Numbered from the stretch's first letter, positions 4,725 to 64,000 are shown. The stretch: DNA of 64,000 nucleotides from Dehalococcoidia bacterium (GCA_965207275.1 CBDBMH010000002.1:465291-529290); one strand, 5' to 3'. Notes: generated by a model not told the origin, from the sequence alone. Translations and numbers: made by a program.

Positions 4725-4833
4725 GGCCTGGCAACTCTAGGAACGTATATATGGATAGCGGTGGGAAACCTGGGTTCGCCGCGTGAAACTAAGTAAGTCC
4801 TGTACATCCCGTGCTTCAATGCTTGAATCACTT

Positions 4834-5769: not shown

Positions 5770-5868
5770 GGCAGGCTCTCCGGTAGGCAGGCAAGCGAAG
5801 TAGTGAAAACATCCACTTGCGGAATTTTTGATTTCGTTGACCTATTCTATCCCATCGGGTGTGCCAAT

Positions 5869-6525: not shown

Positions 6526-6542
6526 TGGCGCGGAACGGTTGG

Positions 6543-7217: not shown

Positions 7218-7392
7218 ATCTTGTGTCCTCGTTCTTTTGGATCACTTCTTGGGTGGTGGAATTATCGGGGCCGGGGCAAAATATCTTGGACGTTCGCCCC
7301 AACTTTGTTTCCAGTTTGAAAGCTCGCAGCCACTCTTCTCCAAGCCTGCCAAAAACGGGCTTACCGATGCTCAATCAATGCGAAATTACGGA

Positions 7393-48070: not shown

Positions 48071-48258
48071 CCCTCAACAGTCCGGTCGTCCGGTGGCAAC
48101 CCCAGGCCAGTCGCTAGTTGGCTTGCACGTTGGCTGGGAGGACAATCCGTCGTTCCCGTCCGCCGCGGCGGGCGGGAACCTCGTTGTCGAGAAGTGCGCG
48201 GAGCCGGTTGGTATATTCCAGGTCGTTGGCCCAACTTTCCGGATAGGAGCGGTACAGC

Positions 48259-49068
48259 ATGAGCGCCATTGAAGCCTGGGGCGAAATGGTGCGCGTTGAG
48301 CACGCGCAGTCGGACAGGATGCGTGGGGCCCGCCCCGCCGATACCTGGCGCCAGCATGCGTCCCGGTTCCGGGCCGATCCCCACCGTACCGGCGATTCCC
48401 AGGTGGAGGCCATCCGCTCCCACCTGCGTCCCGACGACACGCTGCTCGACGTTGGCGCCGGCGGCGGCCGGTTGGCCCTCCCCCTGGCCCTGTCCTGCCG
48501 TCACGTCACCGCCGTCGAGCCTTCCCCCAGCATGGGTTCCGTGCTGCGAGAAACCGCCCGGGATTACGGCATCGAAAACGTTTCCCTGGTCGAGTCGGGT
48601 TGGCTGGATGCCCGGGTCGACCCCGCGGATGTGGTCCTCTGTTGCAACGTGGTTTACGTAATCCAGGACATCGGGGATTTTGTCCGCAAGTTGCACCGGC
48701 ACGCTGAACGCGCCGTGCTGATGGTCATTTTCCAGACATCTCCGTTGGCCCAGGTTCGCGACCTGTGGGAGCAGGTCCACGGCGAGCCCCGGCATCTCTT
48801 GCCTTCCCTGCCCCAGTTCCTTCCTGTGCTGGACGAGCTGGGCATTTCATGCAATACCACCGAGTTGGAACCGCAGCCGTTACGGGTGTATCCCAGCCCG
48901 GCGGAAGCGCGGGATGACATCGCCAGCCGGTTGTTTATCCCCGAGGGCGCCGAGGCTATGGAACGCCTGGAGCGAGCCCTGGAAACTTCGCTCCTGGAAC
49001 GGGATGGACAGTGGCATGTCGCGGGAACGGAGCCCGCCCGCCCCTTCCTGGTCTCCTGGGAGACCTAG
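48259..49068 (+). CDS. class I SAM-dependent methyltransferase
   Basis: Motif I 'TLLDVGAGGGRLALPLA' and post-I 'VTAVEPS'. Confidence 0.75.
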   Translation: MSAIEAWGEMVRVEHAQSDRMRGARPADTWRQHASRFRADPHRTGDSQVEAIRSHLRPDDTLLDVGAGGGRLALPLALSCRHVTAVEPSPSMGSVLRETARDYGIENVSLVESGWLDARVDPADVVLCCNVVYVIQDIGDFVRKLHRHAERAVLMVIFQTSPLAQVRDLWEQVHGEPRHLLPSLPQFLPVLDELGISCNTTELEPQPLRVYPSPAEARDDIASRLFIPEGAEAMERLERALETSLLERDGQWHVAGTEPARPFLVSWET

Positions 49069-49210
49069 GGGAGCCTGCCTGGAAAATTCCGTAAGGACAG
49101 ACCTGTGTGTCCGCCCGGTCTCAGCCACGGAACGACCCCACACGGAACCCTTACCCTCCGCAGCGTCTCCCCTTTCCTTCAGGCAGCGGGACCACGTTTA
49201 CGGAAGGCCC

Positions 49211-50128
49211 CTAACCGTCCACCCTCGGCATCACGTCCTCCACCAGCGCATCCATCGAGTCCAACAACTGTTGCAGGCTGCCGCACCCGTTGAAGTTAAT
49301 CTGGAATTGCTCCAGCCCCGCCTCCTGCCGGTAACGCGTAATATCCGAAGCCACCTCCTCCGGCTTCCCCTGGCCTGTGGGACGCTCCCCGCTTCCGCTG
49401 GAACTCCCCGTAATGTGACTGAAATTCACCCGGAAGCTCATCCGGGTGGGCGGCGCCTCCTCCCGCTCAATTTCGGCGCAGTAGTCCCTCAGGTAACCCT
49501 GGTTTTTCACCAGCGTGTCCAGCGCCGTCGGAGTGGGCTGCCACACCTGCCCGAAGTGCGCCGCCCGCCGCAGCGACGCCTCGCTCGAGCCACCGATCCA
49601 CACCGGTGGATGCGGCTGCTGCAGCGGCTTGGGATATACGTACATTTTCTCAAAGGAAAAGAACCGCCCCTGGAATGTCGTCGCCCCCGGCTCCCAGCAC
49701 GCTTGCCAGATCCGCAGGTACTCGTCCGTCCGCGCCCCCCGCTGCCGGAAAGGAACCCCCAGCGCCCTGTATTCAGCCTCGTTCCAACCGGAACCCACGC
49801 CGATTATCGCCCTGCCCTGCGACATCTGGTCCAGCGTGGCAATCATCTTGGCCGTAACCACCGGGTTCCGGTAGGGCATTATCAGCACCGATGTACCCAG
49901 CATCACCCTGTTCGTCCGCGCCGCCACGTAGGCCAACGTCATCAGCGGGTCATAAACATTCCGCCACGCCTCGCTCCGCGCCGAGTCGTCCACAATGACG
50001 TGGTCATTGACGAACAGCGCGTCAAACCCCAGTTCCTCTGCCTTCACGGCGGTCTGGACTATAGCCTCCGTTGTGGCCGGAAATCCCAGGTAGTCGGCGT
50101 TGGGCAACCGAAACGAGTACTGGACCAT
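49211..50128 (-). CDS. LLM-class F420/flavin-dependent oxidoreductase
   Basis: 305-aa ORF with 'LGFDALFVNDHV', 'LDQMSQGRAIIGVGSGW' and 'HPPVWIGG'. GGAGGAG lies before the ATG. Confidence 0.85.
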   Translation of the reverse strand: MVQYSFRLPNADYLGFPATTEAIVQTAVKAEELGFDALFVNDHVIVDDSARSEAWRNVYDPLMTLAYVAARTNRVMLGTSVLIMPYRNPVVTAKMIATLDQMSQGRAIIGVGSGWNEAEYRALGVPFRQRGARTDEYLRIWQACWEPGATTFQGRFFSFEKMYVYPKPLQQPHPPVWIGGSSEASLRRAAHFGQVWQPTPTALDTLVKNQGYLRDYCAEIEREEAPPTRMSFRVNFSHITGSSSGSGERPTGQGKPEEVASDITRYRQEAGLEQFQINFNGCGSLQQLLDSMDALVEDVMPRVDG

Positions 50129-51386: not shown

Positions 51387-51609
51387 AACCCAAATAATCT
51401 TTTATTCCCATGCTTGCCCTAGTATAATTAGCCACAGGCATCATTCATCCTTCCCATCATTCATAAAGCTATGATTTCGTTCAGGCTTGCCCCTTGAAAA
51501 TCATCCTTCCACGCTTCTTCGGTAACTATGTAACTGCCAGGTTCCAGGCGCCGCCCCACCGCCGGTGATCGCCCGCCAGCCTGGAACCGCAAACCGGGAG
51601 ACAGGTCCC

Positions 51610-52686
51610 ATGCTCGCCTCGCGACGGCAACCGGCCATTGATCAGCTGCCTTCCCCCTTTCCCGAAGGGTGGTACTTCGTCGCCACCCGCGCCGACATCC
51701 GGCGGAAAGGTCTTCTCAGCAAGGTCTGGATGGGAGAGGACATCATCGTTTGGCGCGACGACCTTGGCGAAATCTGCGTAGCCGAGTCCCATTGTCCCCA
51801 CCTGGGAGCCCACCTGGGCCCCGAGGCCGGTGGCCGGGTCTCCGAAGGTCGCCTGGTATGCCCCTTTCACGGCTACCAGTTCGACATCGGCGGCCGGTGC
51901 GTCGCCACCCCTTATGCCGATCCGCCCCGCAACGCTCTCTTACAGGTCTTCGACACCCGGGAAATCAACGGCCTCATCTTCGCCTGGTACGGAATTGACG
52001 GCCGCCCGCCCCAGTGGGAACTCCACCCCGACCGTCCCCAGGCTGAAGGCTGGTCCCGCCCCGCCGTCCGCACCATCCGCTTCCCCGGCCATCCCCAGGA
52101 AACCACCGAAAACTCGGTGGACCTCGCCCACTTCCGCTACGTCCACGGTTACGACAGCTTCGACCGGGTTGGCCGCATCTCGGTGGACGGCGCCCGGCTG
52201 GAAAGCTGCTTCAACTTCAGGTCCGTTCGGAAGCTGGCCGGTTTCAACCTTTTCTCCCTGGACCTTTCCGCCGTCACCCATATCTTTGGTCTCGGCTACT
52301 CCTTCGTGGAAATTCGCGAGCATTCCATTGGCGTAGACTTGCGGCTGTGGGTCCTGGCCACCCCGGTTGACGGTACCCTTGTAGATGTGACCCTCGTCTC
52401 CCAGGTGAGGGAGATCCGCAGCCCCCGGCGCCGACTTATCGGCCTCGGCTTCCTGCCCGTCGGCTGGCGGGCCCCCATGTTCAACAGGTTTATGGCCGCC
52501 CAGCAGACGGGCGACGTTTTGCAGGACGTCGCTATCTGGAGCCGCAAGCGGTACCGTGTCCGTCCCCGCCTCTGTCGTTCCGATGGCGAGATAATGCCCT
52601 TCCGCGCCTATTGTGCCCAGTTCTATCCCGGACCTCAGGCCCAGTCCAGCATCCCTTCCGAAAGCTCGGACCGGGCCCTGCTATGA
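51610..52686 (+). CDS. Rieske [2Fe-2S] non-heme iron oxygenase (PaO/KshA-like)
   Basis: The Rieske motif is 'CPHLGAHL...CPFHGYQF'. 'EGWYFVA' lies near the N-terminus, and the C-terminal catalytic region includes 'ENSVDLAHFRYVH'. ATG 51610 follows GGGAGA. Confidence 0.8.
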   Translation: MLASRRQPAIDQLPSPFPEGWYFVATRADIRRKGLLSKVWMGEDIIVWRDDLGEICVAESHCPHLGAHLGPEAGGRVSEGRLVCPFHGYQFDIGGRCVATPYADPPRNALLQVFDTREINGLIFAWYGIDGRPPQWELHPDRPQAEGWSRPAVRTIRFPGHPQETTENSVDLAHFRYVHGYDSFDRVGRISVDGARLESCFNFRSVRKLAGFNLFSLDLSAVTHIFGLGYSFVEIREHSIGVDLRLWVLATPVDGTLVDVTLVSQVREIRSPRRRLIGLGFLPVGWRAPMFNRFMAAQQTGDVLQDVAIWSRKRYRVRPRLCRSDGEIMPFRAYCAQFYPGPQAQSSIPSESSDRALL

Positions 52687-52774
52687 CGGGTCCCCATAAA
52701 TCCGCTGACAACTCCCTTCCTATTGGCTGGCGAAGGTTTGGACGGAAGTGACGGGGTCAGGTTCCTGACTACAC

Positions 52775-54664
52775 CCCAAATCCACCACCTAATGGGAGAA
52801 AAATGGTTTTGGGGCTCCTTGATTGGGCCGGTTGGGGCATCGGCTGACGGCTGACAGGTTGGCAGTGGGTTGGCGTGGCAGGAGTAGGCGCTGGAAGGGG
52901 ATATTGGGGCGTTGGCCGGCGACGCCAGGGCGAGGTCTATGCCAACCGGTCCTGGAGAAGGGCGCAGTGTCCCTACGGCGGGAGTCCCCGTCGCTTGAAT
53001 GCCCGTCGGTAGTGGCGCAGACCGTCCCAGGTCAGGGTGGGCCGTGGGCCAGCGCCGCTATTCTCCGGTGCGCTCCCGCCAGCAGCGGGAAGGATGGATG
53101 GCCCCGGGCCAGCCGGATCAGCAGCTTCCTGGCGTGGCAGACCACCCGTCCGGCCAGATTGATCAGAGCAAAGCGCACCGCCTTGAGCCGCTTGTTCACC
53201 CACTGACCGCCCAGGGCCAACTGCTTGACCGCCGAGTTCAGGTTGAACGCCAGCGCCGCTATCGCCCACCAGGCCGCGTTGGCCCCGAACTGTCCCGACG
53301 GCAGCCTCCCGCCAGCCAAGTCCTCCTTCAGCACACCATGCACCTCCTCGCCCTTCCCGCATCTCTCCCGGTACCACCGCACCACCTCATCTCCCGGTAG
53401 CTCCCGGTTAGTCACTATCCCCCGGATCTTGTACCAGCCCCGGTCCGGCATCTCCATCGCCGGAACCGACAACTCCAGGTCATCCTCCATGCCCGGCAGC
53501 GGCGGCCGCCTCAGCGGCTCCCGGACCGCTATGAAACGGTAGTCGGGATCATTCTTGGAATAAGCCAATCTATCGGGCACGAAGTCCACCTCGGCCCACT
53601 CCTGTTCCGTCTCCACCGCCAACTCCCCCACCATCCGGGGCAACCGGCGCCACTGGCTCTCCTCCACTTCGGCTGCCGCACGCTTGAACCCCTCCGTGAC
53701 GTCCGCCCCCACCGCGAATTCGATCACTCCGAACCGCTCATCCCTCCCCTCGGCGCAGTACCGCAACAACTCAACTTGGTACCCCGCCGTGTCCGACCGC
53801 AGCATCACCTTCACCACGCCCTCCGGCAGATGGGCCAGCGACTCCCGCAACACCCGCAGTTGCTCGAACCCCGCTGGCACGTTGCCGTCCCGGAACTCCG
53901 AATGGACCACCAGGTCCGCCTCGGCCCAGTAGGTGACCATCGGCTGGTAGGCCTTGTAGCCCTGGTAGCAGTACAGCGCCTCCTGCTTGTAGGTCTCGAT
54001 CAGCGTCGCGTCCATGTCCAGCGTCGCCTGCTCCTGCTCCAGGTGGTCCCGGACGAAGCTCATCATCTCGGCGTTGACCTTCCCCAGCCCGCGCAGCGCG
54101 CCGCTGGGCGCGGGTATGTACGCCGTATGGGGCTGCCTGGCCTCCTCCTGAACCGGGTCGTGGAACCGGCCCAGGTACCGGAACACCGCCGACGGAGACG
54201 GGACGCTGCGGCGCCGCCCGCCCCGCCACCGGCTGCCCTCCTCCCGGCGCTCACAAGCCCGCTGCCGGTGCGTCTCCACCCGGCCCAACATCCGGCCCAG
54301 ACCCTCGTCCCCTTCCAGCACCCGGAGGTCGTCCACTCCTTCTCCACCGGCCAGATTCAGCAGCACCAGCGCGGTGACCATCTGCCGGTCCGTCCATCCC
54401 TGTCCGCCCTCCTTGACCTTCACGTAGCGCCGGATCGACTCGCCCAGCCCCATCGCATCGGCCATTTCCAGATAGACCGCCAACCCCGACAGCCCCGTCA
54501 TGCCCCCCGCGCGATGCTCCGTCCCATACTGGAATGGCAGGACTCCCTGTTGCATAATGACTGCACCTCGTTGGTGATGGTTGTGTTTGTCCCGTAACCA
54601 TCATAGCCAGCTTTGCCGCTGGCTCCAACGAGGTCTTTTCCTCCCATTAGGTGGTGGATTTGGG
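52775..54664 (-). mobile_element. IS1380-family insertion sequence (1890 bp)
   Basis: 24-bp perfect terminal IRs: CCCAAATCCACCACCTAATGGGAG at 52775-52798 and its reverse complement at 54641-54664. It is flanked by the 5-bp direct repeat TACAC (52770-52774 and 54665-54669). It has a single transposase ORF. Confidence 0.9.
53032..54555 (-). CDS. IS1380-family DDE transposase
   Basis: 507-aa ORF with N-terminus 'MQQGVLPFQYGTEHRAGGMTGLSGLAVYLE' and 'LDMDATLIETYKQEALYCYQGYKAYQP', typical of IS1380 transposases. Confidence 0.85.
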   Translation of the reverse strand: MQQGVLPFQYGTEHRAGGMTGLSGLAVYLEMADAMGLGESIRRYVKVKEGGQGWTDRQMVTALVLLNLAGGEGVDDLRVLEGDEGLGRMLGRVETHRQRACERREEGSRWRGGRRRSVPSPSAVFRYLGRFHDPVQEEARQPHTAYIPAPSGALRGLGKVNAEMMSFVRDHLEQEQATLDMDATLIETYKQEALYCYQGYKAYQPMVTYWAEADLVVHSEFRDGNVPAGFEQLRVLRESLAHLPEGVVKVMLRSDTAGYQVELLRYCAEGRDERFGVIEFAVGADVTEGFKRAAAEVEESQWRRLPRMVGELAVETEQEWAEVDFVPDRLAYSKNDPDYRFIAVREPLRRPPLPGMEDDLELSVPAMEMPDRGWYKIRGIVTNRELPGDEVVRWYRERCGKGEEVHGVLKEDLAGGRLPSGQFGANAAWWAIAALAFNLNSAVKQLALGGQWVNKRLKAVRFALINLAGRVVCHARKLLIRLARGHPSFPLLAGAHRRIAALAHGPP

Positions 54665-54832
54665 TACACCCTTTTGCCTTGTATCCTGAATGGGGATTGT
54701 TGTATAGTCCCGAATTACTCGTTCAGAGGTTCCCAGGATGAAGTGGGCGTTTTGGCGAAGATCAACTGACCCATGTATCCTTCAACTAACATTCCATCAA
54801 CTCTCAGTTGACCTAAAGGGGGACTCTTCACT

Positions 54833-57310
54833 TTGGACCGAACACTCACTTTCCTCGCCCGGCTGGTTACGGCCCGCCCCTGGCTGACCCTTCTGGCCCT
54901 CCTGGTCGTTACCGTCGCACTGGGCTATGGCGCCGTTCACCGCGCTCCCCCGCCGGAAACCAGGGCCACCCTGCCCCAGGGCAGCGCCGTCGCCGAGGCG
55001 TTGCACGATATAGAAGATCTATTTACTGAAACCGGCGAAGCCAGCGTCGTAACCCTTCTCTTCCGGGGCAACGCCCTCACCCCCGCCGGCCTTGCCCAGA
55101 TGGACTCCCTGGTCGCCGAAATCGCCGCCGAACCCAGCGTGGCCGAACTGTTGGCGCCGGGCGACCCGGTCATAGCCCCTTCCCATCTGGTCATGGCCCT
55201 GCTCCAGGTCCCCAACTTTGATTCCGTCTCCCAGGCCGACATAGACAACCTCCAGGGTCCCCCGGAAATCCTGGGCGCCATCGACGCCATGACCGGTGAA
55301 GATTCCGACGGCACGCCCGTCGCCATCGCCACCATCCGTGTCCTTAATACGGGCGACGACCGCGTCAAGATCGCCGAGCGTCGCATCCTCGCCCTCGCCC
55401 AGGCCGACCAGGGGCCGCTCGAGGTGAGCAGCGTTTCCCGCATCGTAATCGAGGACGAGTACGTTAGGGCCACCGAGGAGGGAATGGCTCCCCTGGTTGG
55501 GCTGGCCTTCCTGCTCATCGCCGCCCTCATCCTCCTCTTCATGCGCACCATCTCCGACCTGCTCCTGACCATCTTCGGTCTGCTCATGTCCATCATCTGG
55601 ATAGTCGGGGCGGAGGGTTGGCTTGGTCCCAACGCCCTCGGCCTCACCGGCCCGCCCAACTCCCTCACTACCATGGTGCCCATCATCATCATTGGCCTGA
55701 CCGTGGACTACGCCATCCAGATAGTCTCCCACTACCGGGAGCAGCGCAACGCCGGCGAGAACGTTCTGTCCGCCGTCCGCGCCGGTTTCCGCAATGTAGC
55801 CGTTCCCCTGGTGTTGGCCGCCATCACTACCATCGTCAGCCTGCTGGCCAGCCTCTTTTCCCCCATCGAAATCGTAGGCGACTTTGGCATCATCGCCGGC
55901 CTGGGCGTGGGAATGAGCCTCATCGTCATGCTGACTTTGGTGCCGGCCGGCCGCACCATCATCGACCGCCGCCGCGAGGCCCGGGGCCGGCTGAACCCGC
56001 CCCGTCCCATTGCCAACGCCCTGCCCGGCGTCAGCGGCCTGGCCGGCCTGCTGGGTCGCAGCATTACCCGCGCTCCGGGACCCTACCTCATTGGGGTGCT
56101 GGTAGTTACCGCCGCCCTGGGATACGCCGCCACCGACCTTGAATCCGAGTTCAGTATCCGCGACATCCTGCCCCGGGGCGGCGACCTGCTGGCCGATATG
56201 AACACCCTCGATGTGTCCGTCGGCGGTTCCACCGAGATGGCCACCGTGCTGCTGAGGGCGGAGGTAACCGAGGCCCGAACCCTCCTGAATATTCAGGACC
56301 TTACCGACGCATTCCTGGACGAACGCCGCCGTCCGGCCGCTGCGGCCGGCCCCATCCAAGCCTCCTTTGACCTCGTGCTGCGGGACTGGGTGGATGACAG
56401 CGGCGCCCCCGGCGACAATTTTGACCCCGACCTGGCGGCCCTCTTCGGGCAGGCCACCGCCGGGGTGCAGGTCGATCCGGTGCTGATGCAGGAATTCATC
56501 GACCGGCTGGAAGCCAGCGACCCCTCGGTAAGGCGCCTGTTGATCAACGACCCCCAGGGCATCGACGTCATGCTGGTCCAGTTCCCCACCTACTCCGGCG
56601 ACCCCGCCCTCACCAAGCTTATCCAGTCCGATATTGAGGGTCTCTGGTTTGGGGATGACGATGCCATCACCGCCACCTCCGAAAGCATCATTTCCGTGAC
56701 CGTTACCGACTCCATCACCGAGCGGCAGACCGAGGCCATCACCACCACCATCCTGGCCGCTCTTACCGTCCTGGCCGTCTTCTTCTGGGTCACCGTGCGC
56801 CAGCCGGCCCTGGCCGTAATCGCCGTGGGCCCCATCGTGCTGGTGTTGATCTCCGTCCTGGGCACCATGGCCCTCCTGGGCATTCCCTATACCATCATCA
56901 CCTCCATCATCACCGCCCTTTCCATCGGCATCGGCGTTGACTACACTATCCACATGATCCACCGCTACCGGGAGGAGTATTCCGTCGAGCGCGACCCGGA
57001 GCAGGCCGCCGTCCGTACCCTGGCCACCACCGGCTCCGCCCTGCTGGGGTCCGCCCTGACCACCGCCCTGGGTCTTGGCGTGCTGGTGGCCTCCCCCCTG
57101 GCCGCGTCCCAGCAGTTCGGCTTTACCGCGGCCATCACCATCGCCTACTCCCTCATAGTCTCCATTCTGGTCGTCCCGGCCGCCATGACCTTCTGGGGCG
57201 CCTACCAGAACATGAAGCTGCGTTCCAACGTCCGGCGTTGGGCCGAGGAACTGGACATGGAGATTGAAGCCGTCCACCGTCGCCACGAGCTTGACTCGGA
57301 AGCAACGTAA
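54833..57310 (+). CDS. MMPL/RND-superfamily lipid exporter (HpnN-like architecture)
   Basis: 825-aa ORF with two blocks of about 6 TM segments, each preceded by a large extracytoplasmic loop. The duplicated motifs are 'GLTVDYAIQIVSHYREQ' and 'GIGVDYTIHMIHRYREE'. The start is TTG. Confidence 0.8.
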   Translation: MDRTLTFLARLVTARPWLTLLALLVVTVALGYGAVHRAPPPETRATLPQGSAVAEALHDIEDLFTETGEASVVTLLFRGNALTPAGLAQMDSLVAEIAAEPSVAELLAPGDPVIAPSHLVMALLQVPNFDSVSQADIDNLQGPPEILGAIDAMTGEDSDGTPVAIATIRVLNTGDDRVKIAERRILALAQADQGPLEVSSVSRIVIEDEYVRATEEGMAPLVGLAFLLIAALILLFMRTISDLLLTIFGLLMSIIWIVGAEGWLGPNALGLTGPPNSLTTMVPIIIIGLTVDYAIQIVSHYREQRNAGENVLSAVRAGFRNVAVPLVLAAITTIVSLLASLFSPIEIVGDFGIIAGLGVGMSLIVMLTLVPAGRTIIDRRREARGRLNPPRPIANALPGVSGLAGLLGRSITRAPGPYLIGVLVVTAALGYAATDLESEFSIRDILPRGGDLLADMNTLDVSVGGSTEMATVLLRAEVTEARTLLNIQDLTDAFLDERRRPAAAAGPIQASFDLVLRDWVDDSGAPGDNFDPDLAALFGQATAGVQVDPVLMQEFIDRLEASDPSVRRLLINDPQGIDVMLVQFPTYSGDPALTKLIQSDIEGLWFGDDDAITATSESIISVTVTDSITERQTEAITTTILAALTVLAVFFWVTVRQPALAVIAVGPIVLVLISVLGTMALLGIPYTIITSIITALSIGIGVDYTIHMIHRYREEYSVERDPEQAAVRTLATTGSALLGSALTTALGLGVLVASPLAASQQFGFTAAITIAYSLIVSILVVPAAMTFWGAYQNMKLRSNVRRWAEELDMEIEAVHRRHELDSEAT

Positions 57311-57322
57311 AAAAGAAACGTT

Positions 57323-58360
57323 ATGCGACTACGTAAACTATCCAGAGGGCTGAAGGACGCGTACCGGGGTTCGGACGCTCGCCCTCGCGTGAAGCGCTTT
57401 GACGGATGGGAGGAAAGGGCGGCGGAGGATAATCCCGACCCGGCCGCCTACGATCATGCCGATACCGTCAAGGAATACTACGACCTCTGCACCGAGTTCA
57501 TGGAGTTTGGTTGGGGCGAAAGCTTGCACTTCGCCCCCCTGTCGCCCGGGGAGAGCCTGGAGGACGCCAAGGTCCGGCACCAGCGGCTGATGATTGCCAG
57601 GCTGGAGTTGCGACCGGGCATGAAGGTGATCGATGTTGGTTGCGGAGTCGGTGGCCCCATGCGTCGCGTCGTTCGGGAGTCCGGCGCCAGCGTCCTGGGG
57701 GTCAATAGCAGCCAGGTCCAGTTGGAGAAGGCTAAATCGCTGAATAATGCCGCCGGGATTGGCCGCCTGGTTGACTATCTCTCCTGCAGCTTCATGGACA
57801 TGGGCGCCATACCGGACAACACCTTCGACCGGGGTTACGCCATCGAGTCCACCTGCCATGCGCCCGACAAGGCCGGAGCATTCGCCGAGATTTATCGTGT
57901 GCTGAAACCCGGGGCCCTGTTCTGGGGCCAGGAAATGTGCCTGACCGATAAGTTCAACCCCAGCGACCGCCGCCACTGCGCCATTAGACGGGACCTGATG
58001 CATGGCATCGCCCTCCAGGACATCGCCACCGGGGACGAGGTGGACCGGACCCTCGAAAGGGTTGGATTTCAAGTCATTGAAGGGAAGGACTTGGCCGCCT
58101 TGGACGGGGAACGGACCACGCCATGGTTTCAGCCCATGGCGACCCGGCGCGGAACGCTGGGCAACGCCATTTACCGCACTCCCCTGGGCCGCAAGCTGCT
58201 GCTGGGGACAGTCAGGCTGTCAGAGGTGCTGGGAATGTTCCCGAAAGGCTCCACAGATGTTGCTGGACTGCTGGACAATACCGCCGAGGCATACGTCGCC
58301 GCTGGCCGGGCCGGCATCTTTACGCCCCTCTACTGTTTCCTGGCCCGCAAACCGGAGTAA
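57323..58360 (+). CDS. sterol 24-C-methyltransferase-like (ERG6/SMT family) SAM-dependent methyltransferase
   Basis: 'VKEYYDLCTEFMEFGWGESLHFAP' (compare SMT region 'YYDLxTDxYEYGWGxSFHF'), SAM motif 'KVIDVGCGVGGPMR', 'AIESTCHAPD', 'IYRVLKPGA', and a C-terminal extension of the kind seen in sterol MTs. Confidence 0.65.
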   Translation: MRLRKLSRGLKDAYRGSDARPRVKRFDGWEERAAEDNPDPAAYDHADTVKEYYDLCTEFMEFGWGESLHFAPLSPGESLEDAKVRHQRLMIARLELRPGMKVIDVGCGVGGPMRRVVRESGASVLGVNSSQVQLEKAKSLNNAAGIGRLVDYLSCSFMDMGAIPDNTFDRGYAIESTCHAPDKAGAFAEIYRVLKPGALFWGQEMCLTDKFNPSDRRHCAIRRDLMHGIALQDIATGDEVDRTLERVGFQVIEGKDLAALDGERTTPWFQPMATRRGTLGNAIYRTPLGRKLLLGTVRLSEVLGMFPKGSTDVAGLLDNTAEAYVAAGRAGIFTPLYCFLARKPE

Positions 58361-58428
58361 CCGGCCCCTGCAGGGCAATCGCATTACGGACTTGAGATAC
58401 AGCCGGCATATGTTCCCAGGCCGGATGT

Positions 58429-58468
58429 CATGTCGCCCTGAGCCTGCCGAAGGGCCTGAAGTCTTGCC
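58429..58468 (+). repeat. family-2 repeat copy
   Basis: CATGTCGCCCTGAGCCTGCCGAAGGGCCTGAAGTCTTGCC. Confidence 0.8.
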
Positions 58469-58778
58469 ACTCAGCACCCTTACGGGTCCGAATGCTTGAC
58501 TGTGTGATGGAGTTTACCCGCCGCCGCAGGTTCGGTCCGCCGCGGCGGACTCTGCAAGACATTTTCTTATAATGCGATTGCCCTGGCGGCCTCTGAAATC
58601 TACCGGTAGCAATCCAAATTTGGTATTACAGTTCTGCGACACCGTAGTAGCGGGTAGCGGTAACATCCAGGTGGTTGAAGCTGGCAACGGCGGGACTCAA
58701 TCCCACCCCTCGGTTCGTTCCCTGGCGCCCTTTGTCTTTCGGCCTCGGCAGATCAGAACTTGGAAACTATCTCATAAG

Positions 58779-58808
58779 CCCCTTCCCTCTTGATCGGGGA
58801 AGGCCGCC
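58779..58808 (+). repeat. family-1 repeat, 5' part only
   Basis: CCCCTTCCCTCTTGATCGGGGAAGGCCGCC. The matching 3' part GGGAAGGCCAGGATGGGGGTGAAAACC is at 59576-59602, on the other side of the AT-richer gene. Confidence 0.6.
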
Positions 58809-58865
58809 TTTGCATTGAATCGCTTTGATTAGGCCGACTTATGAGCCGGAATGAGGGATTATGAT

Positions 58866-59522
58866 TCAGCCCTGTTTCTTGAACAGGTACATTGCTGCTG
58901 AGTCGGTAGGTTGAAACCTTGCCCGACTGGGGGATTTGCATAAGTCGGACTCCACCATTGCCAGCGTTAACGATACTCCCCGTGCCGTTTTGAAGTATGA
59001 GGACAATTCAGATTCAGAAGTCGTCATATCGAGGCTTTCGACCTTGAATGCACCCACAAGAAGGAAGTCTGAGTCAACATAGGCGCGGCGAGCGTCATTA
59101 TGGCCGTCATTCACAAGCAGGTTTCCGCCGGAGACAAGGAAACGTTTGCAAGCTTGGGAAATAAGCCCCGCGTTTAAGGATATGAGCAAATCAAAGGATT
59201 CCTCTGGCTCTGCATTAAAGGCGTGATAGTCCTGCTGATAACAGGAAATGTCAGAAGATTCCGGGTATATTTTGTGTCTGGCTACGTACTCCCGTAAGTC
59301 GGTGTCTGCCACCATTTCGGCAATACCGGAGAGGGCATCCACGTAAATGACGTGGGGAAAGAAAATAGAAGGTGTAATATGAACGTAGCTACCGGGATAA
59401 AGAACCTTTCTAACAGCGAATTCCTGGCTTATCTGTGACAGTACAGGATAAAGGTCAACACTGTTGGCAGGATTCGTCCGGTAAGTGGACATATAAATGT
59501 CCAGCGGCCTGATTGACGACAT
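58866..59522 (-). CDS. hypothetical protein (possibly a Rossmann/methyltransferase-like fold)
   Basis: 218-aa ORF in a visibly AT-richer segment. 'KVLYPGSYVH', 'FDLLISLNAG' and 'GGNLLVND' loosely resemble class I MTase motifs I, II and IV. Confidence 0.5.
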   Translation of the reverse strand: MSSIRPLDIYMSTYRTNPANSVDLYPVLSQISQEFAVRKVLYPGSYVHITPSIFFPHVIYVDALSGIAEMVADTDLREYVARHKIYPESSDISCYQQDYHAFNAEPEESFDLLISLNAGLISQACKRFLVSGGNLLVNDGHNDARRAYVDSDFLLVGAFKVESLDMTTSESELSSYFKTARGVSLTLAMVESDLCKSPSRARFQPTDSAAMYLFKKQG

Positions 59523-59575
59523 TAAGAATTGACCTGCGCTGCCTACAATTCAGGAGGCCTTTTTGTGCAAAGCCT

Positions 59576-59602
59576 GGGAAGGCCAGGATGGGGGTGAAAA
59601 CC
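59576..59602 (+). repeat. family-1 repeat, 3' part only
   Basis: GGGAAGGCCAGGATGGGGGTGAAAACC. Confidence 0.6.
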
Positions 59603-59640
59603 TACCCAACAATGACCTCGTACATAACTGCCCCATCCAT

Positions 59641-59682
59641 CGGCCGTCTTGAGTCGGCCGTCTTGAGTCGGCCGTCTTGAGA
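59641..59682. repeat. 3 x 14-bp direct tandem repeat (CGGCCGTCTTGAGT)
   Basis: CGGCCGTCTTGAGT CGGCCGTCTTGAGT CGGCCGTCTTGAGA, about 120 bp upstream of the minus-strand start at 59522. Confidence 0.85.
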
Positions 59683-59768
59683 TAGTTCCTTAACCCCTCG
59701 ATTTCATAATCGGCTCTGGGGAGAATGCCTGACCGTAGCTCCTGGGAGGGCAAACTCCGACCAATCCA

Positions 59769-61799
59769 TCACCCGACCAGCTTACGCCGCTTCTCCACCA
59801 CCTGGAACCGCAGTTTCTTGTTCGGCTTCATCGACGGCAGCGGGGCGAACCCCAGCTTGTAGTCCCGGGGATACACGTCGATATTGAAGTAGTGCGCCAC
59901 CATCAACACGTTCACCGCCAGTTGCAGCTCCATCCACCGTGAACCCAGGCACCTGTGCGGCCCCAGCCCGTAGGGAGCGTAACCGGGACTGAAATGCTCG
60001 TTCCTCGGCGGCAAGTACCGGTCAATATCAAACTTGAACGGTTCCGGAAAGGCCTCGCTCATGTAGTGGGACGCCGACTGCGCAATAAACACCCTCGTCC
60101 CCACCGTAAGCTGGTAGTCCTCCACCACGCAGGAATTCATCACGTCCCGTATCGACATGGGGACTATCGGGTACATCCGCAGGCATTCCATCAGGAACCG
60201 GTGCGTCACGTCTATTGCCTCCGGGGTGAAGTCCGCCGGGTCCGGGTCCCCGTTGGCGAACAGCGCATCCGCCTCCTCTTGGATCCGCCGATACAGCTCC
60301 GGCTGCGAAGCCATGGCGTATAGCGCGAACGAATAGGCGTCACCCAGGTAAACGCTGGCAATCAGCGCCGCCGACAGGGCAAAACGAAGGTTTGCCTCGG
60401 GCACCAGCTGTGGGTCGCTGGCGTGCAGGCTTAGAATGTCATCCGCCAGGTCCCGCGGCGCCCCGGCCCGCTGTGCCGGCGTATGCACACCCTGGATCCG
60501 CTCCATGAGTTCATCAATGACCTTGGCACGCGCCTTCATCGCCGGTGTGCTGAGCATGAACTTCGGCAGCACCCTCACGATGTGGGTGTTCAGCGCCCGC
60601 TCCTTGAACTTGATCAGGTCTCCGATGATGTCCTGGGAGTCAACACTCACAAAAATGGGCGAAAGCTGCGCGTTGATCATGTATCGGCACAGCTCCGTCG
60701 CCGGAAAAATCCTCCCCTCCCGCCAGTCCGACATGAAACCCCTTGCCTGCTGGTAGACCTGGTCAATCTGCCCCATCAGCCTGCCCCGGGAATAAGCCGA
60801 CGCCAGCGATTTCCGCAGCCGGAAGTGTTCCCCGCCGTCCAACGAAGGCAACACTCCCGAAGCCCCGTACACCTTCTCGAAATCGCTAAAGTAGTTCCGC
60901 GCCCTCAGGTACATCCGCCCGTTGCGGTTGGCCCAGTGGTTGGTCTCCGGCCCCGCCAGAAACACCATCGGCTTGCTGAAGGGAGGCTTTACTTCAAACA
61001 CCGGCCCGTACTTCTCCGCCAGGTCCGCGAAAACGGCCGGCAGGTTGCCATTCCGAATATTCCGATTTAACGCCAGGTCCCGCAGCGATACCCTGGGTAT
61101 CTGTTTCGTGAACGCCGAATGGCGCATCATCGGCCCCGCCATGTTCACGGACACCGCCTCGGCAATCGACCGTCCGATCAGGTCCATTTGGCAGATGAAG
61201 TTGATCCTCTCCTCGGCGGCGTCATCCAGCTGGAACATAAACCGGAAAACGTCGCAGGTATTGATCAGGCAGATGATGATCACATCCCGCGGATCGGGGA
61301 TCTCGTTATTGAAAATCACCCGGCTCAACCGCGTCTTCACGAACTCCGTGGCGCTGCCTTCCCGCGAGGTTCCACTCCAACCTGCGCTCATGGCATTGGG
61401 TGTCAGCGTCCAGAAATCCCCGTCGTGGTGCTCCAGGATATTCAGCTCCACCAGCCGGTCCAGTGTAAGGTCAATTATCTCCTCGGCCCGGGGCGCCAGC
61501 CGCTCAATCCAGTACTGGGCAGTCCTCTGACCCGCGTCCCCTACTATCTCCGCCAGGATCGGGTCCAGGGCGGGATTCCCCGTGTCCATGGCGTCCACCA
61601 GGTACAGTGAGCGCGTGTCCGTGTCGATACGGTGCTGCAGGGAAAGCTCCGCCAGCGCCGATCCAATAATCGCGCAATTCAGGTCCCACCCGGGCACCTG
61701 GTGAAAGTACCCACTCTCCTCGTTCAGCAGCGCGAGAATTAGCTCCTCGGGCAAATTCAGCTGTTGGCCCACCAGAAATTCGGTATAGGAAGTAGTCAT
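59769..61799 (-). CDS. GPP34 (GOLPH3-like) domain fused to a cytochrome P450
   Basis: The N-terminal ~230 aa read 'LPEELILALLNEESGYFHQVPGWDLNCAIIGSALAELSL', which is GPP34-like. The C-terminal P450 has ExxR 'ECLRMYP', 'PEPFKFDIDRY' and heme loop 'YGLGPHRCLGSRW'. The start is taken at ATG 61799, because the upstream extension is Arg-rich. Confidence 0.75.
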   Translation of the reverse strand: MTTSYTEFLVGQQLNLPEELILALLNEESGYFHQVPGWDLNCAIIGSALAELSLQHRIDTDTRSLYLVDAMDTGNPALDPILAEIVGDAGQRTAQYWIERLAPRAEEIIDLTLDRLVELNILEHHDGDFWTLTPNAMSAGWSGTSREGSATEFVKTRLSRVIFNNEIPDPRDVIIICLINTCDVFRFMFQLDDAAEERINFICQMDLIGRSIAEAVSVNMAGPMMRHSAFTKQIPRVSLRDLALNRNIRNGNLPAVFADLAEKYGPVFEVKPPFSKPMVFLAGPETNHWANRNGRMYLRARNYFSDFEKVYGASGVLPSLDGGEHFRLRKSLASAYSRGRLMGQIDQVYQQARGFMSDWREGRIFPATELCRYMINAQLSPIFVSVDSQDIIGDLIKFKERALNTHIVRVLPKFMLSTPAMKARAKVIDELMERIQGVHTPAQRAGAPRDLADDILSLHASDPQLVPEANLRFALSAALIASVYLGDAYSFALYAMASQPELYRRIQEEADALFANGDPDPADFTPEAIDVTHRFLMECLRMYPIVPMSIRDVMNSCVVEDYQLTVGTRVFIAQSASHYMSEAFPEPFKFDIDRYLPPRNEHFSPGYAPYGLGPHRCLGSRWMELQLAVNVLMVAHYFNIDVYPRDYKLGFAPLPSMKPNKKLRFQVVEKRRKLVG

Positions 61800-62194
61800 G
61801 CCCGGTCTCCCAGCGTCCTCCGGACGCTTCCAATCAACTGTGGTACGCCCCCTCCGGAATGTTCGCCCGTCCCTCACGACGATAGCGGAAGTTCGAGCGC
61901 GTCTGTCAGTAACGCGCCCTTCCTGTCCCACATACCATTTGTGCTTACAATGCTAACCCATGCCAAATCATATTGCAAAGCTATATTCTGTGAAGGAATT
62001 CGCAATCTGGGCCGGATATCTGGGTTCTATTCCGCCGTTGTTCCTCCTACCATGGCCACGCCAATTGCCATCAAGGTGGCCACGGACACTGCCCTCCTTG
62101 ACAACCCGTTCCCCCTCTCTGACAATCACCTCGACCATCCCAACCAAACAGCAAAACAGCCGCCGGGAACATCCGGCGGCCGCAAGGAGTTTTC

Positions 62195-62992
62195 ATGACC
62201 ACCAGTTCCATAACCTGGACTCAAGAAATGGTAGAAGTGGCTGGTACCCGCATCAACCTGGTCAAGGGCGGGTCCGGCGACCCCCTGCTCGTCCTCCACG
62301 ACGAGATGGGCCACCCCGGCTGGCTCCGCTGGCACGAAGCCCTGGCCCAGGACCACACCCTCTACATCCCCTGGCACCCCGGCTTCGGCGAGTCCGAGCC
62401 CCTGGACTGGGTGATGAATCTCCACGACCTGGCCGTCTGGTACCTGGGCGCCCTGGACGACCTGGGGCTGGAGGGTGTGGACGTCATGGGCTTTTCCCTG
62501 GGTGGCTGGCTGGCCGCCGAAATGGCGGTGATGGACCCCCAGCAGTTCAAGCGTCTGGCCCTGGTGGGCGCCGCCGGTGTCCGCCCCCCGGAGGGCGAAA
62601 TCTACGACATTTTCCAGGTGGTGGCCAAGGTCTTCATCACCCACAGCCTCCACAACCCCGAAGCCGTCCCCGAGTACCAGGCCATCTGCCCCGACGAACC
62701 CACCGAGGAGCAGGCCTTCAACTGGGAGACCTCCCTGGAGGGCGCCTGCCGTCTGGCCTGGCGACCCTACATGCACTACCCGGCCCTGCCCAACCTGCTC
62801 CCTCGCCTCAAGCGCCTCCCCACCCTCATCGTCACCGGCGACCAGGACCCCATAGTCCCCCCCAGCGCCGCCCAACTCTACCACCAAAGCATCCCCAACT
62901 CCCGCCTGGAAATTGTTGAGAACTGCGGCCATAGGCCCGAGGTGGAACAGACGGAAAGGTTCGTGGAGGTGGTGCGGGGGTGGTTTGGGTAG
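62195..62992 (+). CDS. alpha/beta-fold hydrolase (BphD/MhpC-like)
   Basis: 'LLVLHDEMGHPGW', nucleophile elbow 'GFSLGGWLA', and C-terminal 'NCGHRPEVE' (catalytic His). AAGGAG lies upstream. Confidence 0.85.
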   Translation: MTTSSITWTQEMVEVAGTRINLVKGGSGDPLLVLHDEMGHPGWLRWHEALAQDHTLYIPWHPGFGESEPLDWVMNLHDLAVWYLGALDDLGLEGVDVMGFSLGGWLAAEMAVMDPQQFKRLALVGAAGVRPPEGEIYDIFQVVAKVFITHSLHNPEAVPEYQAICPDEPTEEQAFNWETSLEGACRLAWRPYMHYPALPNLLPRLKRLPTLIVTGDQDPIVPPSAAQLYHQSIPNSRLEIVENCGHRPEVEQTERFVEVVRGWFG

Positions 62993-63109
62993 GGGGACGT
63001 TAATAAACCTTTGGGCAAAGCACAACGACACTATTAACTATGAGCGTATGGGGATACTAAATGGCAAGTCTCAACTTCTATCCCCCTGAAACTGGTGAGG
63101 CAACGCAGT

Positions 63110-64000
63110 ATGAGCTCTGACTTCTTTTCCAAGCTAAGTGTTCCAGACGAACCGTCCAAGGCGATACATCCCATTGATATTTTTCAAGGGGCTAGAATTA
63201 GAGACACAAATATTAACGACCTTTGGTTAGCGCAAGGTGATGCACTACGTGAGTGGCATTCCCTAAGGGAGCAAGGCGACCTAGCTATTGTTCTTAACAC
63301 CGGTGCTGGCAAGACGTTGGTAGGGTTGCTCATTGCACAGTCATTGGTAAATGAAACTCAACGTCAGGTGGTCTACGCGTGCAGCTCAATTCAATTAGTG
63401 CAGCAAACGGCAGACAAAGCTGAAGGTTACGGCCTCCCGGTTACCACCTATTACCAACAGCAGTTCTCTACAGACAATCTCTATCAACGGTCGGAAGCAC
63501 CGTGCATCACCACCTATCAAGCCTTGTTTAACGGCAGATCAAGGTTTCGGAGAGACGATATTGCGGCTGTAGTTTTCGATGACGCTCATACTGTGGACAA
63601 CATACTAAGAGAGCAGTTTTCCTTGCATATAGTTAGGACAGAAATGCCTGAGTTATACAATCAACTGGTTGACTTGTACAGGCAGTATCATCATGCCATA
63701 GACCGAGCTACGAGCTACGATGACGTGTGTAAGGGAGTATCTGATAGAGAATTTTTCGTCCCCCCTTTCGAAGTATTGAACAGTGTAAGTGAGTTGCGAC
63801 GGTTGCTCAGAGAAGGCAATCTCAGAGACCAGAGTCGCACTAGATTCTCTTGGGAGCATTTGCAGGACCATGAAGACCTATGTTGTGTTCTAATTTCAAG
63901 AGAGTCAGTAACTCTGACTCCAGCAGTTGTCCCCACGTTCACCTTGCCTTACTTCGGAGAGAACGTACGACGCATTTATTTGTCGGCAACTCTGACAGCG
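63110..64000 (+). CDS. SF2 DEAH-type helicase, N-terminal part (runs off the window)
   Basis: The frame is open from ATG 63110 to the window end and is absent from the ORF track. Motif I is 'LNTGAGKTLVG', Ia 'VVYACSSIQLVQQ', Ib 'TTYQAL', II 'VFDDAH' and III 'LSATLT'. It lies in an AT-richer segment that begins right after 62992. Confidence 0.8.
   Translation, partial: MSSDFFSKLSVPDEPSKAIHPIDIFQGARIRDTNINDLWLAQGDALREWHSLREQGDLAIVLNTGAGKTLVGLLIAQSLVNETQRQVVYACSSIQLVQQTADKAEGYGLPVTTYYQQQFSTDNLYQRSEAPCITTYQALFNGRSRFRRDDIAAVVFDDAHTVDNILREQFSLHIVRTEMPELYNQLVDLYRQYHHAIDRATSYDDVCKGVSDREFFVPPFEVLNSVSELRRLLREGNLRDQSRTRFSWEHLQDHEDLCCVLISRESVTLTPAVVPTFTLPYFGENVRRIYLSATLTA

Follow-up and report, generated by a model that had tools for sequence, protein, structure and literature searches.

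The 64-kb stretch of DNA analysed here (the window), from a Chloroflexota genome that is probably sponge-associated, contains neighboring genes for a membrane exporter, a sterol methyltransferase (SMT)-like methyltransferase (MT), a cytochrome P450 fused to a GPP34 domain and an alpha/beta hydrolase, which raises the question of whether they work together and on what kind of lipid. A preliminary description had proposed these four genes as a candidate lipid- or sterol-modification locus, and their open reading frames (ORFs) and domains were all confirmed; the description missed, however, a conserved Rieske oxygenase gene and an IS1380 insertion. Among 80 MT-centred loci, 65 have an MMPL transporter gene, 65 a gene for the GPP34-P450 fusion and 62 the Rieske gene no farther than 10 kb from the MT gene, while the full four-gene set is found in 51, in two recurrent orders and with protein identities of 60-75% across loci. 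Lone MT homologues account for 15 of the 80 loci, and the MT or MMPL gene is missing from some P450-centred loci. Even where the MT of this type is most divergent (43% identity), a GPP34-P450 gene adjoins it. The arrangement is far from chance because the gaps are tight: in 60 related loci, the median distance is 11 nt from MMPL to MT and 39 nt from the MT stop to the P450 stop. A KshA-like Rieske oxygenase, an MMPL/SSD-type RND transporter, an SMT-type MT of a distinct subfamily and the GPP34-P450 fusion thus constitute a cassette whose genes travel together, the Rieske oxygenase being the fourth conserved member and lying beyond the region previously described. In the window the MT gene starts 12 nt past the exporter stop codon, as reported, and at this spacing the suggested co-transcription of the two genes is plausible. 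The hydrolase gene (62195-62992, plus strand) is present, but it is kept in only one of the 80 loci and does not belong to the conserved set.

Two insertions interrupt the cassette in the window, although all four of its ORFs are intact. An intact IS1380-family element (52775-54664, minus strand; transposase ORF at 53032-54555; NCBIfam transpos_IS1380, 230 bits against a cutoff of 180) with 29-nt terminal inverted repeats and a 5-bp target duplication, TACAC, at 52770-52774 and 54665-54669, separates the Rieske gene from the MMPL gene; it is missing from the syntenic nearest relative (L003) and is an interruption outside the cassette. The AT-richer stretch noted earlier between the MT and P450 genes is real (GC 0.47-0.54) and represents a 1.4-kb insertion at 58369-59784, which is absent from the 172-bp MT-P450 gap of L003. 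It holds a tandem repeat of 3 x 14 nt (59640-59681) and a 218-aa orphan ORF (58866-59522, minus strand) that matches no Pfam or NCBIfam model and lacks homologues in the other fetched loci. This insertion is specific to the source genome and lies outside the cassette.

Carriers of the cassette are MAGs labelled as several different phyla, and nearly all of the 80 related loci come from sponge-associated MAGs. One Rhodospirillaceae-labelled MAG has the complete four-gene set, with LpxB and LpxI among the neighbors, and variants were found on Latescibacteria-labelled and other contigs. Many genome loci carry names that we take to be those of sponge MAGs, and some of the contig series with metagenome loci are presumably Aplysina assemblies. 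All 62 metagenome loci belong either to contig series (LXNJ, LXNI, JGIcombinedJ30088, Ga0209021) listed as Petrosia, Sarcotragus and Aplysina metagenomes by Brown et al. 2023 (PMC10070321) or to these presumed Aplysina series. The apparent restriction to sponges refers to the surveyed loci, those of relatives of the MT and the fusion. Relatives of the MT were found at 534 loci among GTDB species representatives, and the rarity that had been ascribed to bacterial SMT homologues does not hold in the sponge-symbiont niche.

The exporter gene (54833-57310, plus strand) encodes an 825-aa RND lipid transporter of the MMPL/HAE3 type whose TM bundles are sterol-sensing-like. Its protein matches Pfam MMPL (152 bits), Sterol-sensing (E 9e-15) and Patched SSD models, and hydropathy indicates 12 TM segments and two large extracytoplasmic loops; by these domain and topology features it can be assigned to the MMPL/HAE3 branch of the RND superfamily, with HAE3 (TIGR00921) as the best NCBIfam model (214 bits, below the subfamily cutoff of 351.9). 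It had been described as an HpnN/MMPL-type exporter, of which the MMPL part stands; a label as HpnN or BstA is not supported. Although HpnN and BstA are RND lipid transporters as well, likewise having 12 TM segments, two large loops and genes of lipid-modifying enzymes as neighbors, the window protein falls far short of the equivalog cutoffs for HpnN (TIGR03480, 116 versus 751.85 bits; NF052374, 73 versus 1100) and BstA (NF045600, 29 versus 1400), and in a PDB comparison MmpL4/5, Patched and HpnN all stand at roughly the same distance from it. Neither hopanoid genes nor BstB/BstC partners were found alongside it, and Pfam scans of the larger ORFs detected no shc or hpn gene in the 64-kb window.

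The MT gene (57323-58360, plus strand) encodes a 345-aa SMT-family (ERG6-like) SAM-dependent C-methyltransferase with Methyltransf_11 and Sterol_MT_C domains, the latter (PF08498) scoring 59.5 bits against a cutoff of 21.7 at residues 285-345; identity to ERG6 is 35% over the full length. It shares Sterol_MT_C, Regions II and III, D125, and H90 and E195, which serve catalysis and sterol binding, with ERG6/SMT1 and bacterial SMTs (PMC10070321). The tested SMTs were mostly described in OSC-SdmAB clusters, whereas the window MT has MMPL, GPP34-P450 and Rieske genes as its conserved partners. In Region II (DxGxGxxGP) of the class I SAM-binding fold, all 81 clade members share D125, G127, G129, G132 and P133, and the sequence of Region III is YAIESTCHAP (family pattern, YAIExTCHAP). 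The nearest named relatives outside its own subfamily are bacterial proteins of the 'sterol 24-C-methyltransferase family' and a rice cycloartenol-C-24-methyltransferase-like protein (both 41% identity; E-values of 1e-74 to 1e-79). In the NJ tree, the subfamily is monophyletic in 40/40 bootstraps and nests inside the SMT family, among bacterial and plant sterol MTs and not with tocopherol, mycolate or phospholipid MTs, so that the ERG6/SMT-like label was borne out. The two results named beforehand as counting against the proposed locus, clustering of the MT with non-sterol enzymes and a gene set lacking conserved linkage, were thus both contradicted by the data. Region I differs: it reads GWGESLHF and departs from the family pattern GWGxxFHF. 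Known SMTs have Y/F81, F89 and D/N/G249, whereas the cassette-type MT has M81 (80 of 81 orthologues), L89 (81 of 81) and I249 (nearly invariant among the 81). By these features the MT belongs to the ERG6/SMT family, within which it represents a separate subfamily whose sterol-binding Region I is altered. A 2025 preprint (bioRxiv 10.64898/2025.12.19.695621) reports that every functional SMT has F89, so that for an MT with L89 it cannot be taken for granted that desmosterol-type substrates are methylated canonically at C-24; the rule predicts inactivity on desmosterol and 24-methylenecholesterol. The cassette-type MT may act on unusual sterols, or on no sterol.

This prediction and the replaced sterol side-chain contacts, which are invariant or nearly so across the subfamily, favor a possible though unlikely alternative, namely that the cassette serves to modify and export one of the symbiont's own lipids that is not a sterol, such as squalene, some other isoprenoid (acyclic or cyclic), or a fatty-acyl chain with a double bond. 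The SMT-like enzyme would then have taken on a new olefin as its substrate, and in the fatty-acyl case methyl-branched or hydroxylated lipids would be formed. SMT-like enzymes methylating squalene or botryococcene exist, and 10-methyl fatty acids are made by an FAD-oxidoreductase/methyltransferase pair, to which a flavin amine-oxidase-like oxidoreductase, accompanying the cassette in about half of the related loci and often beside the MT gene, may be compared. The match of the MT to the CMAS model (58.9 bits), the export of many lipid classes by MMPL pumps, and an MFS gene paired with an LprG-like lipoprotein gene close by in 17-19 of the 80 loci point in the same direction. Against such a lipid, the MT keeps Sterol_MT_C and almost all SMT-specific catalytic residues, its subfamily nests among sterol MTs, and the apparent restriction to host-associated bacteria is more in keeping with a substrate supplied by the host than with a bulk lipid of the symbiont's own making.

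The Rieske gene (51565-52686, plus strand; 373-aa ORF), located upstream of MMPL or divergent from P450 in related loci, encodes a KshA-like non-haem-iron oxygenase with Pfam Rieske and KshA_C domains (KshA_C, 77 bits) and with both expected motifs, CPHLG...CPFHG (CPHxG...CPFHG) and DLAHFRYVH (DxxHxxxxH). An SdmA identity was rejected (NF052579, 35.8 bits against a cutoff of 600, in the Rieske domain only). The best PDB match is KshA (E 3e-23), which has the same domain architecture; however, the phmmer alignment covers residues 24-200 only, so that just the N-terminal half aligns, no KshB-type reductase is conserved nearby, and the gene neighborhood is biosynthetic rather than catabolic. This match is one argument for steroid catabolism or detoxification, in which the P450 would carry out CYP125-like terminal side-chain oxidation, the Rieske protein would open the ring as a KshA-type 9-alpha-hydroxylase, and the pump would remove toxic intermediates. 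We consider such a role very unlikely. The adjacent hydrolase, which would suit it, is only weakly HsaD-like (58 bits against a cutoff of 400) and, as noted above, is hardly ever retained. Known steroid degradation has no role for a C-methyltransferase; KstD, KshB, Hsa, beta-oxidation and Mce genes are neither present in the window nor conserved in related loci, and in other lineages the cassette adjoins genes of sterol synthesis.

The GPP34-P450 gene (59769-61799, minus strand; ORF to 61931) is convergent with the MT gene, as described, and encodes 676 aa from its likely start; position 61799 is probably the true start because the database gene model has 676 aa. Pfam GPP34 (E 1e-25) and p450 (E 1e-36) match ORF residues 60-260 and 294-691, an architecture found in all 120 listed homologues, and more than 100 proteins of this kind, from sponge metagenomes and MAGs, share 69-91% identity with the window protein. 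The P450 keeps the haem-Cys motif YGLGPHRCLG and an ExxR motif, but in place of the I-helix acid/alcohol pair it has ASVYLGD, which is nearly invariant and contains no Thr, and since the I-helix lacks the oxygen-activation pair, the P450 may not be an ordinary hydroxylase. A CYP51 identity was rejected (best E ~4e-17, ~18-20% identity, non-canonical I-helix), no close characterised relative was found, and the cassette encodes no reductase or ferredoxin partner for the P450. Its AlphaFold model was poor (pLDDT 58). The best structural match of the P450 is CYP184A1, crystallised with oleic acid, and a fatty-acid-bound match would favor the non-sterol lipid considered above. No alignable GOLPH3 or Vps74 sequence was detected by phmmer of the GPP34 domain against solved structures.

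The fusion corresponds in domain architecture and length (~675 aa) to GPP34_L, a published sponge-symbiont marker (PMC11706023; Microbiome 2025), a status that the preliminary description had overlooked. GPP34_L was reported there as exclusive to sponge symbionts of many phyla and expressed in Aplysina aerophoba and, considering that eukaryotic GPP34/GOLPH3 binds PI4P, was proposed to be secreted as an effector, binding host PI4P and keeping phagosomes from maturing, in which case the neighboring genes would be functionally unrelated. We give this explanation a slim chance. Neither a signal peptide nor an N-terminal TM segment was found in the fusion, a P450 requires haem and normally cytoplasmic redox partners, and the gene, which is packed against the MT gene as described above, is kept with two more lipid-related genes in phyla of differing cell envelopes, all of which speak against a secreted effector; here the fusion belongs to a conserved set of lipid-tailoring genes. 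Moreover, the rare GPP34-Rieske fusions and the P450 genes adjoining short GPP34 genes in the same study, together with the lack of a signal peptide, suggest that GPP34 is a shared module serving oxygenases and not a stand-alone effector. The two ideas are compatible, because a sterol that is modified and exported might have its own effect on the host. The words sterol, methyltransferase and MMPL are absent from the main text of PMC11706023, and we found no paper that joins the GPP34-P450 fusion to sterol genes.

Evidence for the kind of substrate also comes from other lineages, in which the recurrent neighbors are sterol-specific and speak against a non-sterol lipid. In L092/L129, a GPP34-P450 gene, a cassette-type MT, a canonical SMT, a CYP51-like P450, an ERG4/ERG24 gene and a fused squalene epoxidase-oxidosqualene cyclase (SE-OSC) lie within 11 kb; in L133, SE-OSC, CYP51-like P450 and ERG24 genes are found 3-9 kb from GPP34-P450. 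ERG4/ERG24-family reductase genes also occur near the cassette or the fusion in L035, L043, L045, L066, L076, L078, L115, L143 and L147. The steroid gene clusters of Kelly et al. 2022 (ERG24-CYP51-LSS with a flanking SMT; PMC9531527) share with the cassette the sponge-symbiont habitat and an SMT-family gene, and physically adjoin cassette genes in L092/L129; unlike them, the window lacks a cyclase, CYP51 and ERG24. A cluster for de novo sterol biosynthesis in the window was therefore rejected: SE-OSC, CYP51-like and ERG24 queries gave no tblastn match in the 64 kb, and Pfam scans of the larger ORFs revealed no cyclase or epoxidase, in agreement with the earlier observation on cyclases. In PMC9531527 (Table S1), four cassette-bearing Ircinia MAGs (89-93% complete) were scored 'CSG present: No', a case against de novo sterols that comprises four incomplete MAGs and one published cluster definition (OSC-CYP51-ERG24). 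Although the missing OSC cluster would also be expected for a non-sterol lipid, it fits the import of a sterol, as had been suggested for the substrate.

We consider it somewhat probable (about 55%) that the locus is a copy of a sponge-symbiont cassette modifying and exporting a membrane sterol or sterol-like triterpenoid, a reading under which two published "sponge symbiosis" gene signatures would be joined. A sterol-linked role is suggested because independent families point to it (Sterol_MT_C and the SMT placement of the MT, KshA_C, and the Sterol-sensing/Patched matches of the exporter) and because the cassette is physically adjacent to sterol synthesis genes in L092/L129 and L133. Such a sterol would probably be host-derived, because the window has no cyclase or epoxidase and the four carrier MAGs have no OSC cluster. 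A sterol in the cytoplasmic membrane of the symbiont, in the source genome probably from the sponge host, would be reached by the soluble P450 anchored at the membrane through its N-terminal GPP34 lipid-headgroup-binding domain; the P450 and the Rieske oxygenase would oxidise the ring system or side chain, and the MT would add a methyl group to a side-chain double bond, the altered Region I suggesting that the substrate or the position differs from the canonical delta-24 of desmosterol. From the cytoplasmic membrane, the RND pump would then deliver the product to the cell surface or to the host; since RND pumps export, this model includes no entry route for host sterol.

There is also a small chance that the cassette-type MT is the missing enzyme for the unconventional side-chain alkylations of sponge sterols, acting on host sterols prepared by the oxygenases, with the pump returning the product. 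Candidate reactions could include methylation at C-26 or C-27, methylation of delta-25 sterols (precursors of aplysterol-type sterols and 26-methylstigmastane) and cyclopropane formation. If this is true, symbionts would co-produce 'sponge' sterane biomarkers without making sterols, and GPP34-P450 would be a lipid enzyme, not an anti-phagocytosis effector.

Reading of the open reading frames and their domains bore out the four genes of the preliminary description, including the close spacing of exporter and methyltransferase: an MMPL-type RND transporter of 825 aa (54833-57310, + strand) is followed 12 nt later by a methyltransferase of 345 aa (57323-58360, + strand), and a GPP34-P450 fusion (59769-61931, - strand) lies convergent with the methyltransferase and before an alpha/beta hydrolase (62195-62992, + strand). 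A Rieske oxygenase with a KshA_C domain (51565-52686, + strand) precedes the transporter. The nearest relative among the fetched loci, L003, shares synteny with the window between ~44.8 kb and 63.0 kb (~70-86% DNA identity), and relative to it the window carries two insertions. The first, in the intergenic space between the Rieske and MMPL genes, is an intact IS1380 element (52775-54664, - strand; 52770-54669 including the target duplication) that has inverted repeats of 29 nt and a target duplication of 5 bp, TACAC, and it may uncouple the MMPL and methyltransferase genes from upstream transcription. The second is a 1.4-kb low-GC stretch (58369-59784) between the methyltransferase and the P450, in which a 14-nt unit is repeated perfectly three times in tandem (59640-59681) and a 16-nt inverted repeat, also perfect, occupies 58371-58386 and 58570-58585. 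Its orphan ORF of 218 aa (58866-59522, - strand) has no family match and was rejected as a pathway gene because a homologue is absent from all other fetched loci. A scan for promoters and terminators gave signals no better than those in shuffled sequence.

Directly after the hydrolase, GC falls to ~0.465 and only short ORFs are present (63000-64000); because synteny with L003 stops there, this segment is perhaps another foreign or intergenic block. Upstream of the cassette, genes for a 2-hydroxyacid dehydrogenase, a small methyltransferase and an F420-dependent LLM oxidoreductase (47105-50128) are syntenic with L003 only and fall outside the conserved set. Elsewhere in the window, the larger ORFs code for, among others, ABC peptide transport, ZnuA, F420-dependent oxidoreductases and glycosyl enzymes. 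Among the features of the remaining sequence are a fusion of a DNA methylase and an HNH nuclease (605 aa) abutting an IS1595-family transposase (32281-35042), and a protein of 828 aa, roughly double the normal size, that has two metal-binding stretches of ZnuA type (42910-45396).

Relatives of the methyltransferase are encoded at 534 loci in GTDB species representatives, and the best 80 of these come nearly all from MAGs that bear the label Chloroflexota, Dehalococcoidia or SAR202; sponge-MAG names are recognisable for many of them. By tblastn of the window proteins against these 80 loci, the MMPL transporter and the GPP34-P450 fusion were each found within 10 kb of the methyltransferase at 65 loci and the Rieske oxygenase at 62. 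The alpha/beta hydrolase, which had been counted as part of the locus, was present at 1 of the 80 and is thus excluded from the cassette. Two gene orders dominate, namely Rieske, MMPL and methyltransferase on the same strand with a convergent P450 (27 loci), and MMPL and methyltransferase on the same strand with a convergent P450 followed by the Rieske gene (24 loci); the median gap is 11 nt from MMPL to methyltransferase and 39 nt between the methyltransferase and P450 stop codons. Unbiased clustering of all ORFs in the 80 loci returned the same four families, and a search begun from the P450 gave the same picture. We reject chance adjacency of the cassette genes; the gene set is real and of greater interest than such adjacency. 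Clustering also brought out a 463-aa flavin amine-oxidase-like oxidoreductase at ~40 loci, which is absent from the window, and an MFS and LprG-like lipoprotein pair at 17-19 loci.

Beyond these loci, all four cassette genes occur in a Rhodospirillaceae-labelled MAG (with LpxB and LpxI among the neighbours), a 7.9-Mb contig carries the fusion with MMPL and Rieske genes, and a Latescibacteria-labelled contig combines an AcrB-type tripartite pump with the fusion, an amine oxidase and a Rieske gene. Among 62 P450-centred loci from sponge metagenomes, many of them short, at least 28 carry a Rieske gene, and an SMT-family methyltransferase likewise occurs in at least 28. The cassette is modular, and its occurrence in MAGs labelled as several phyla at ~70% protein identity suggests that it has been passed horizontally among sponge symbionts. 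At two loci (L012 and L016) an intact methyltransferase stands beside mere fragments of the MMPL and P450 genes, so that decay of the cassette appears to be under way in some genomes.

The methyltransferase has a Sterol_MT_C domain, and its full-length identity to yeast ERG6 is 35%. According to a 2025 preprint, every functional SMT conserves a set of 25 residues (bioRxiv 10.64898/2025.12.19.695621); the ERG6 sequence used here for numbering agreed with all 25+ residues numbered there. Cassette-type methyltransferases keep almost all of the listed residues, including H90, D125, G129, P133 and E195, and deviate at F89, which is Leu in all 81 sequences, at T78, which varies, and at L341, where either Met or Leu occurs. 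Two further specificity positions are also altered: 80 of the 81 have Met for Y81, and Ile stands at position 249. A search of 1.84 billion library representatives gave 273 clusters that match the protein at E < 1e-30, and among them the M81/L89/(I or L)249 signature is confined to a handful of clusters nearest the query. The group with this signature was monophyletic in 40 of 40 neighbour-joining bootstraps and has canonical SMTs from sponge symbionts as its neighbours in the tree. Outside the group, the closest proteins that bear a name are bacterial members of the "sterol 24-C-methyltransferase family" and a cycloartenol-C-24-methyltransferase-like protein of rice, at 41% identity each. Judged from sequence, the protein belongs genuinely to the SMT family, yet to a separate subfamily, and because it deviates from the residue rule of the preprint it may lack activity on desmosterol and 24-methylenecholesterol. 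One branch of cassette-type methyltransferases (54% identity; L110, L111 and L112) has Gln in place of H90, the residue on which deprotonation in ERG6 is reported to depend.

For the transporter, 12 TM segments with two large loops are predicted, and it matches the Sterol-sensing and Patched SSD models. Its identification as HpnN or BstA could not be upheld, as the scores are far under the equivalog cutoffs; among solved structures, MmpL4/5, Patched and HpnN all lie at roughly the same distance from it. The architecture of the fusion has been published as GPP34_L, which is reported to occur in sponge symbionts only, to be monophyletic and to be expressed in situ, and for which a role as a secreted PI4P-binding effector has been proposed (PMC11706023). 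Neither a signal peptide nor an N-terminal TM segment was found in the fusion here. The words sterol, methyltransferase and MMPL do not occur in the main text of that paper, and a full-text literature search found no paper tying sponge-symbiont GPP34 to sterol. The haem-binding and ExxR motifs are intact, and the I-helix reads ASVYLGD (residues ~481-487 of the 676-aa form) instead of the acid/alcohol pair of the usual (A/G)Gx(D/E)T, a feature nearly invariant across 120 homologues of the gene (59769-61799). Such an I-helix is unusual for an oxygen-activating P450 and hints that the enzyme may perform chemistry other than ordinary hydroxylation. An AlphaFold2 model of the fusion (mean pLDDT 58) was poor in the P450 domain, and the Foldseek ranking obtained from it (CYP184A1, CYP51, BM3, CYP3A4) assigns no substrate. 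The GPP34 domain had no match in the PDB by phmmer. Rare GPP34-Rieske fusions, and P450 genes adjoining short GPP34 genes, have been reported (PMC11706023); together with the Rieske neighbour here, they fit GPP34 as a module shared by P450 and Rieske oxygenases, for which membrane targeting would be the simplest role.

Three cassette families (SMT, KshA_C and SSD-type RND) have steroid precedents, and the main alternative is that the cassette acts on a non-sterol lipid. Physical association with sterol genes is stronger evidence for a sterol substrate than these family precedents. In L092/L129, from Aplysina aerophoba, six genes lie inside 11 kb: a GPP34-P450, a cassette-type methyltransferase, a canonical SMT, a fused squalene epoxidase-oxidosqualene cyclase, a CYP51-like P450 and an ERG4/ERG24 reductase. 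ATP-citrate lyase genes and an aconitase adjoin this cluster (4235-7309), which suggests a host with a reductive TCA cycle (Nitrospirota-like). The association of fusion and sterol genes recurs in another locus, L133, with a fusion only 48% identical, and six Chloroflexota loci have ERG4/ERG24-family genes near the cassette. In L115 (8980-13388), two tandem GPP34-P450 genes adjoin an ERG4/ERG24 gene, an amine oxidase and a third SMT type, whose Region I is EFCEQGWGQSIHFA and which also occurs in Dadabacteria-labelled MAGs. On contig LXNJ01000389, whose SMT was assayed by Brown et al. (PMC10070321), a canonical-type SMT lies ~4 kb from a GPP34-P450/MMPL/Rieske set.

As to the source of a sterol substrate, the absence of a cyclase from the window was confirmed, and epoxidase, CYP51 and ERG24 genes were likewise not found there. 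Four Ircinia MAGs (Chloroflexota_B UBA11872, 89-93% complete) listed without an OSC-CYP51-ERG24 cluster (Kelly et al., PMC9531527, Table S1) bear the cassette, and this small sample of four MAGs favours host-derived sterol as the substrate in this Chloroflexota lineage.

Each part of the cassette is already known; the conserved four-gene combination, the distinct methyltransferase subfamily and the lipid-enzyme role implied here for the GPP34-P450 appear to be undescribed in the literature searched. SMT homologues and the fusion have each been reported separately as enriched in sponge symbionts, the former read as sterol side-chain alkylation and the latter as phagocytosis evasion. Our results place both signatures side by side in a single conserved cassette, along with a Rieske oxygenase of steroid type and an exporter of sterol-sensing type, and in some lineages genes of the cassette directly adjoin oxidosqualene cyclase. 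We infer the function of the cassette from gene association, and this context offers a specific biochemical role for the fusion that is open to test. A further outcome is an SMT subfamily whose sterol-binding region is altered; existing assays would probably call its members inactive, and they are candidates for assay with unusual sterol substrates. These findings bear on the reading of steranes, 24-isopropylcholestane and 26-methylstigmastane among them, as fossils of animals, and on whether the sterols of the host are remodelled by symbionts without a cyclase.
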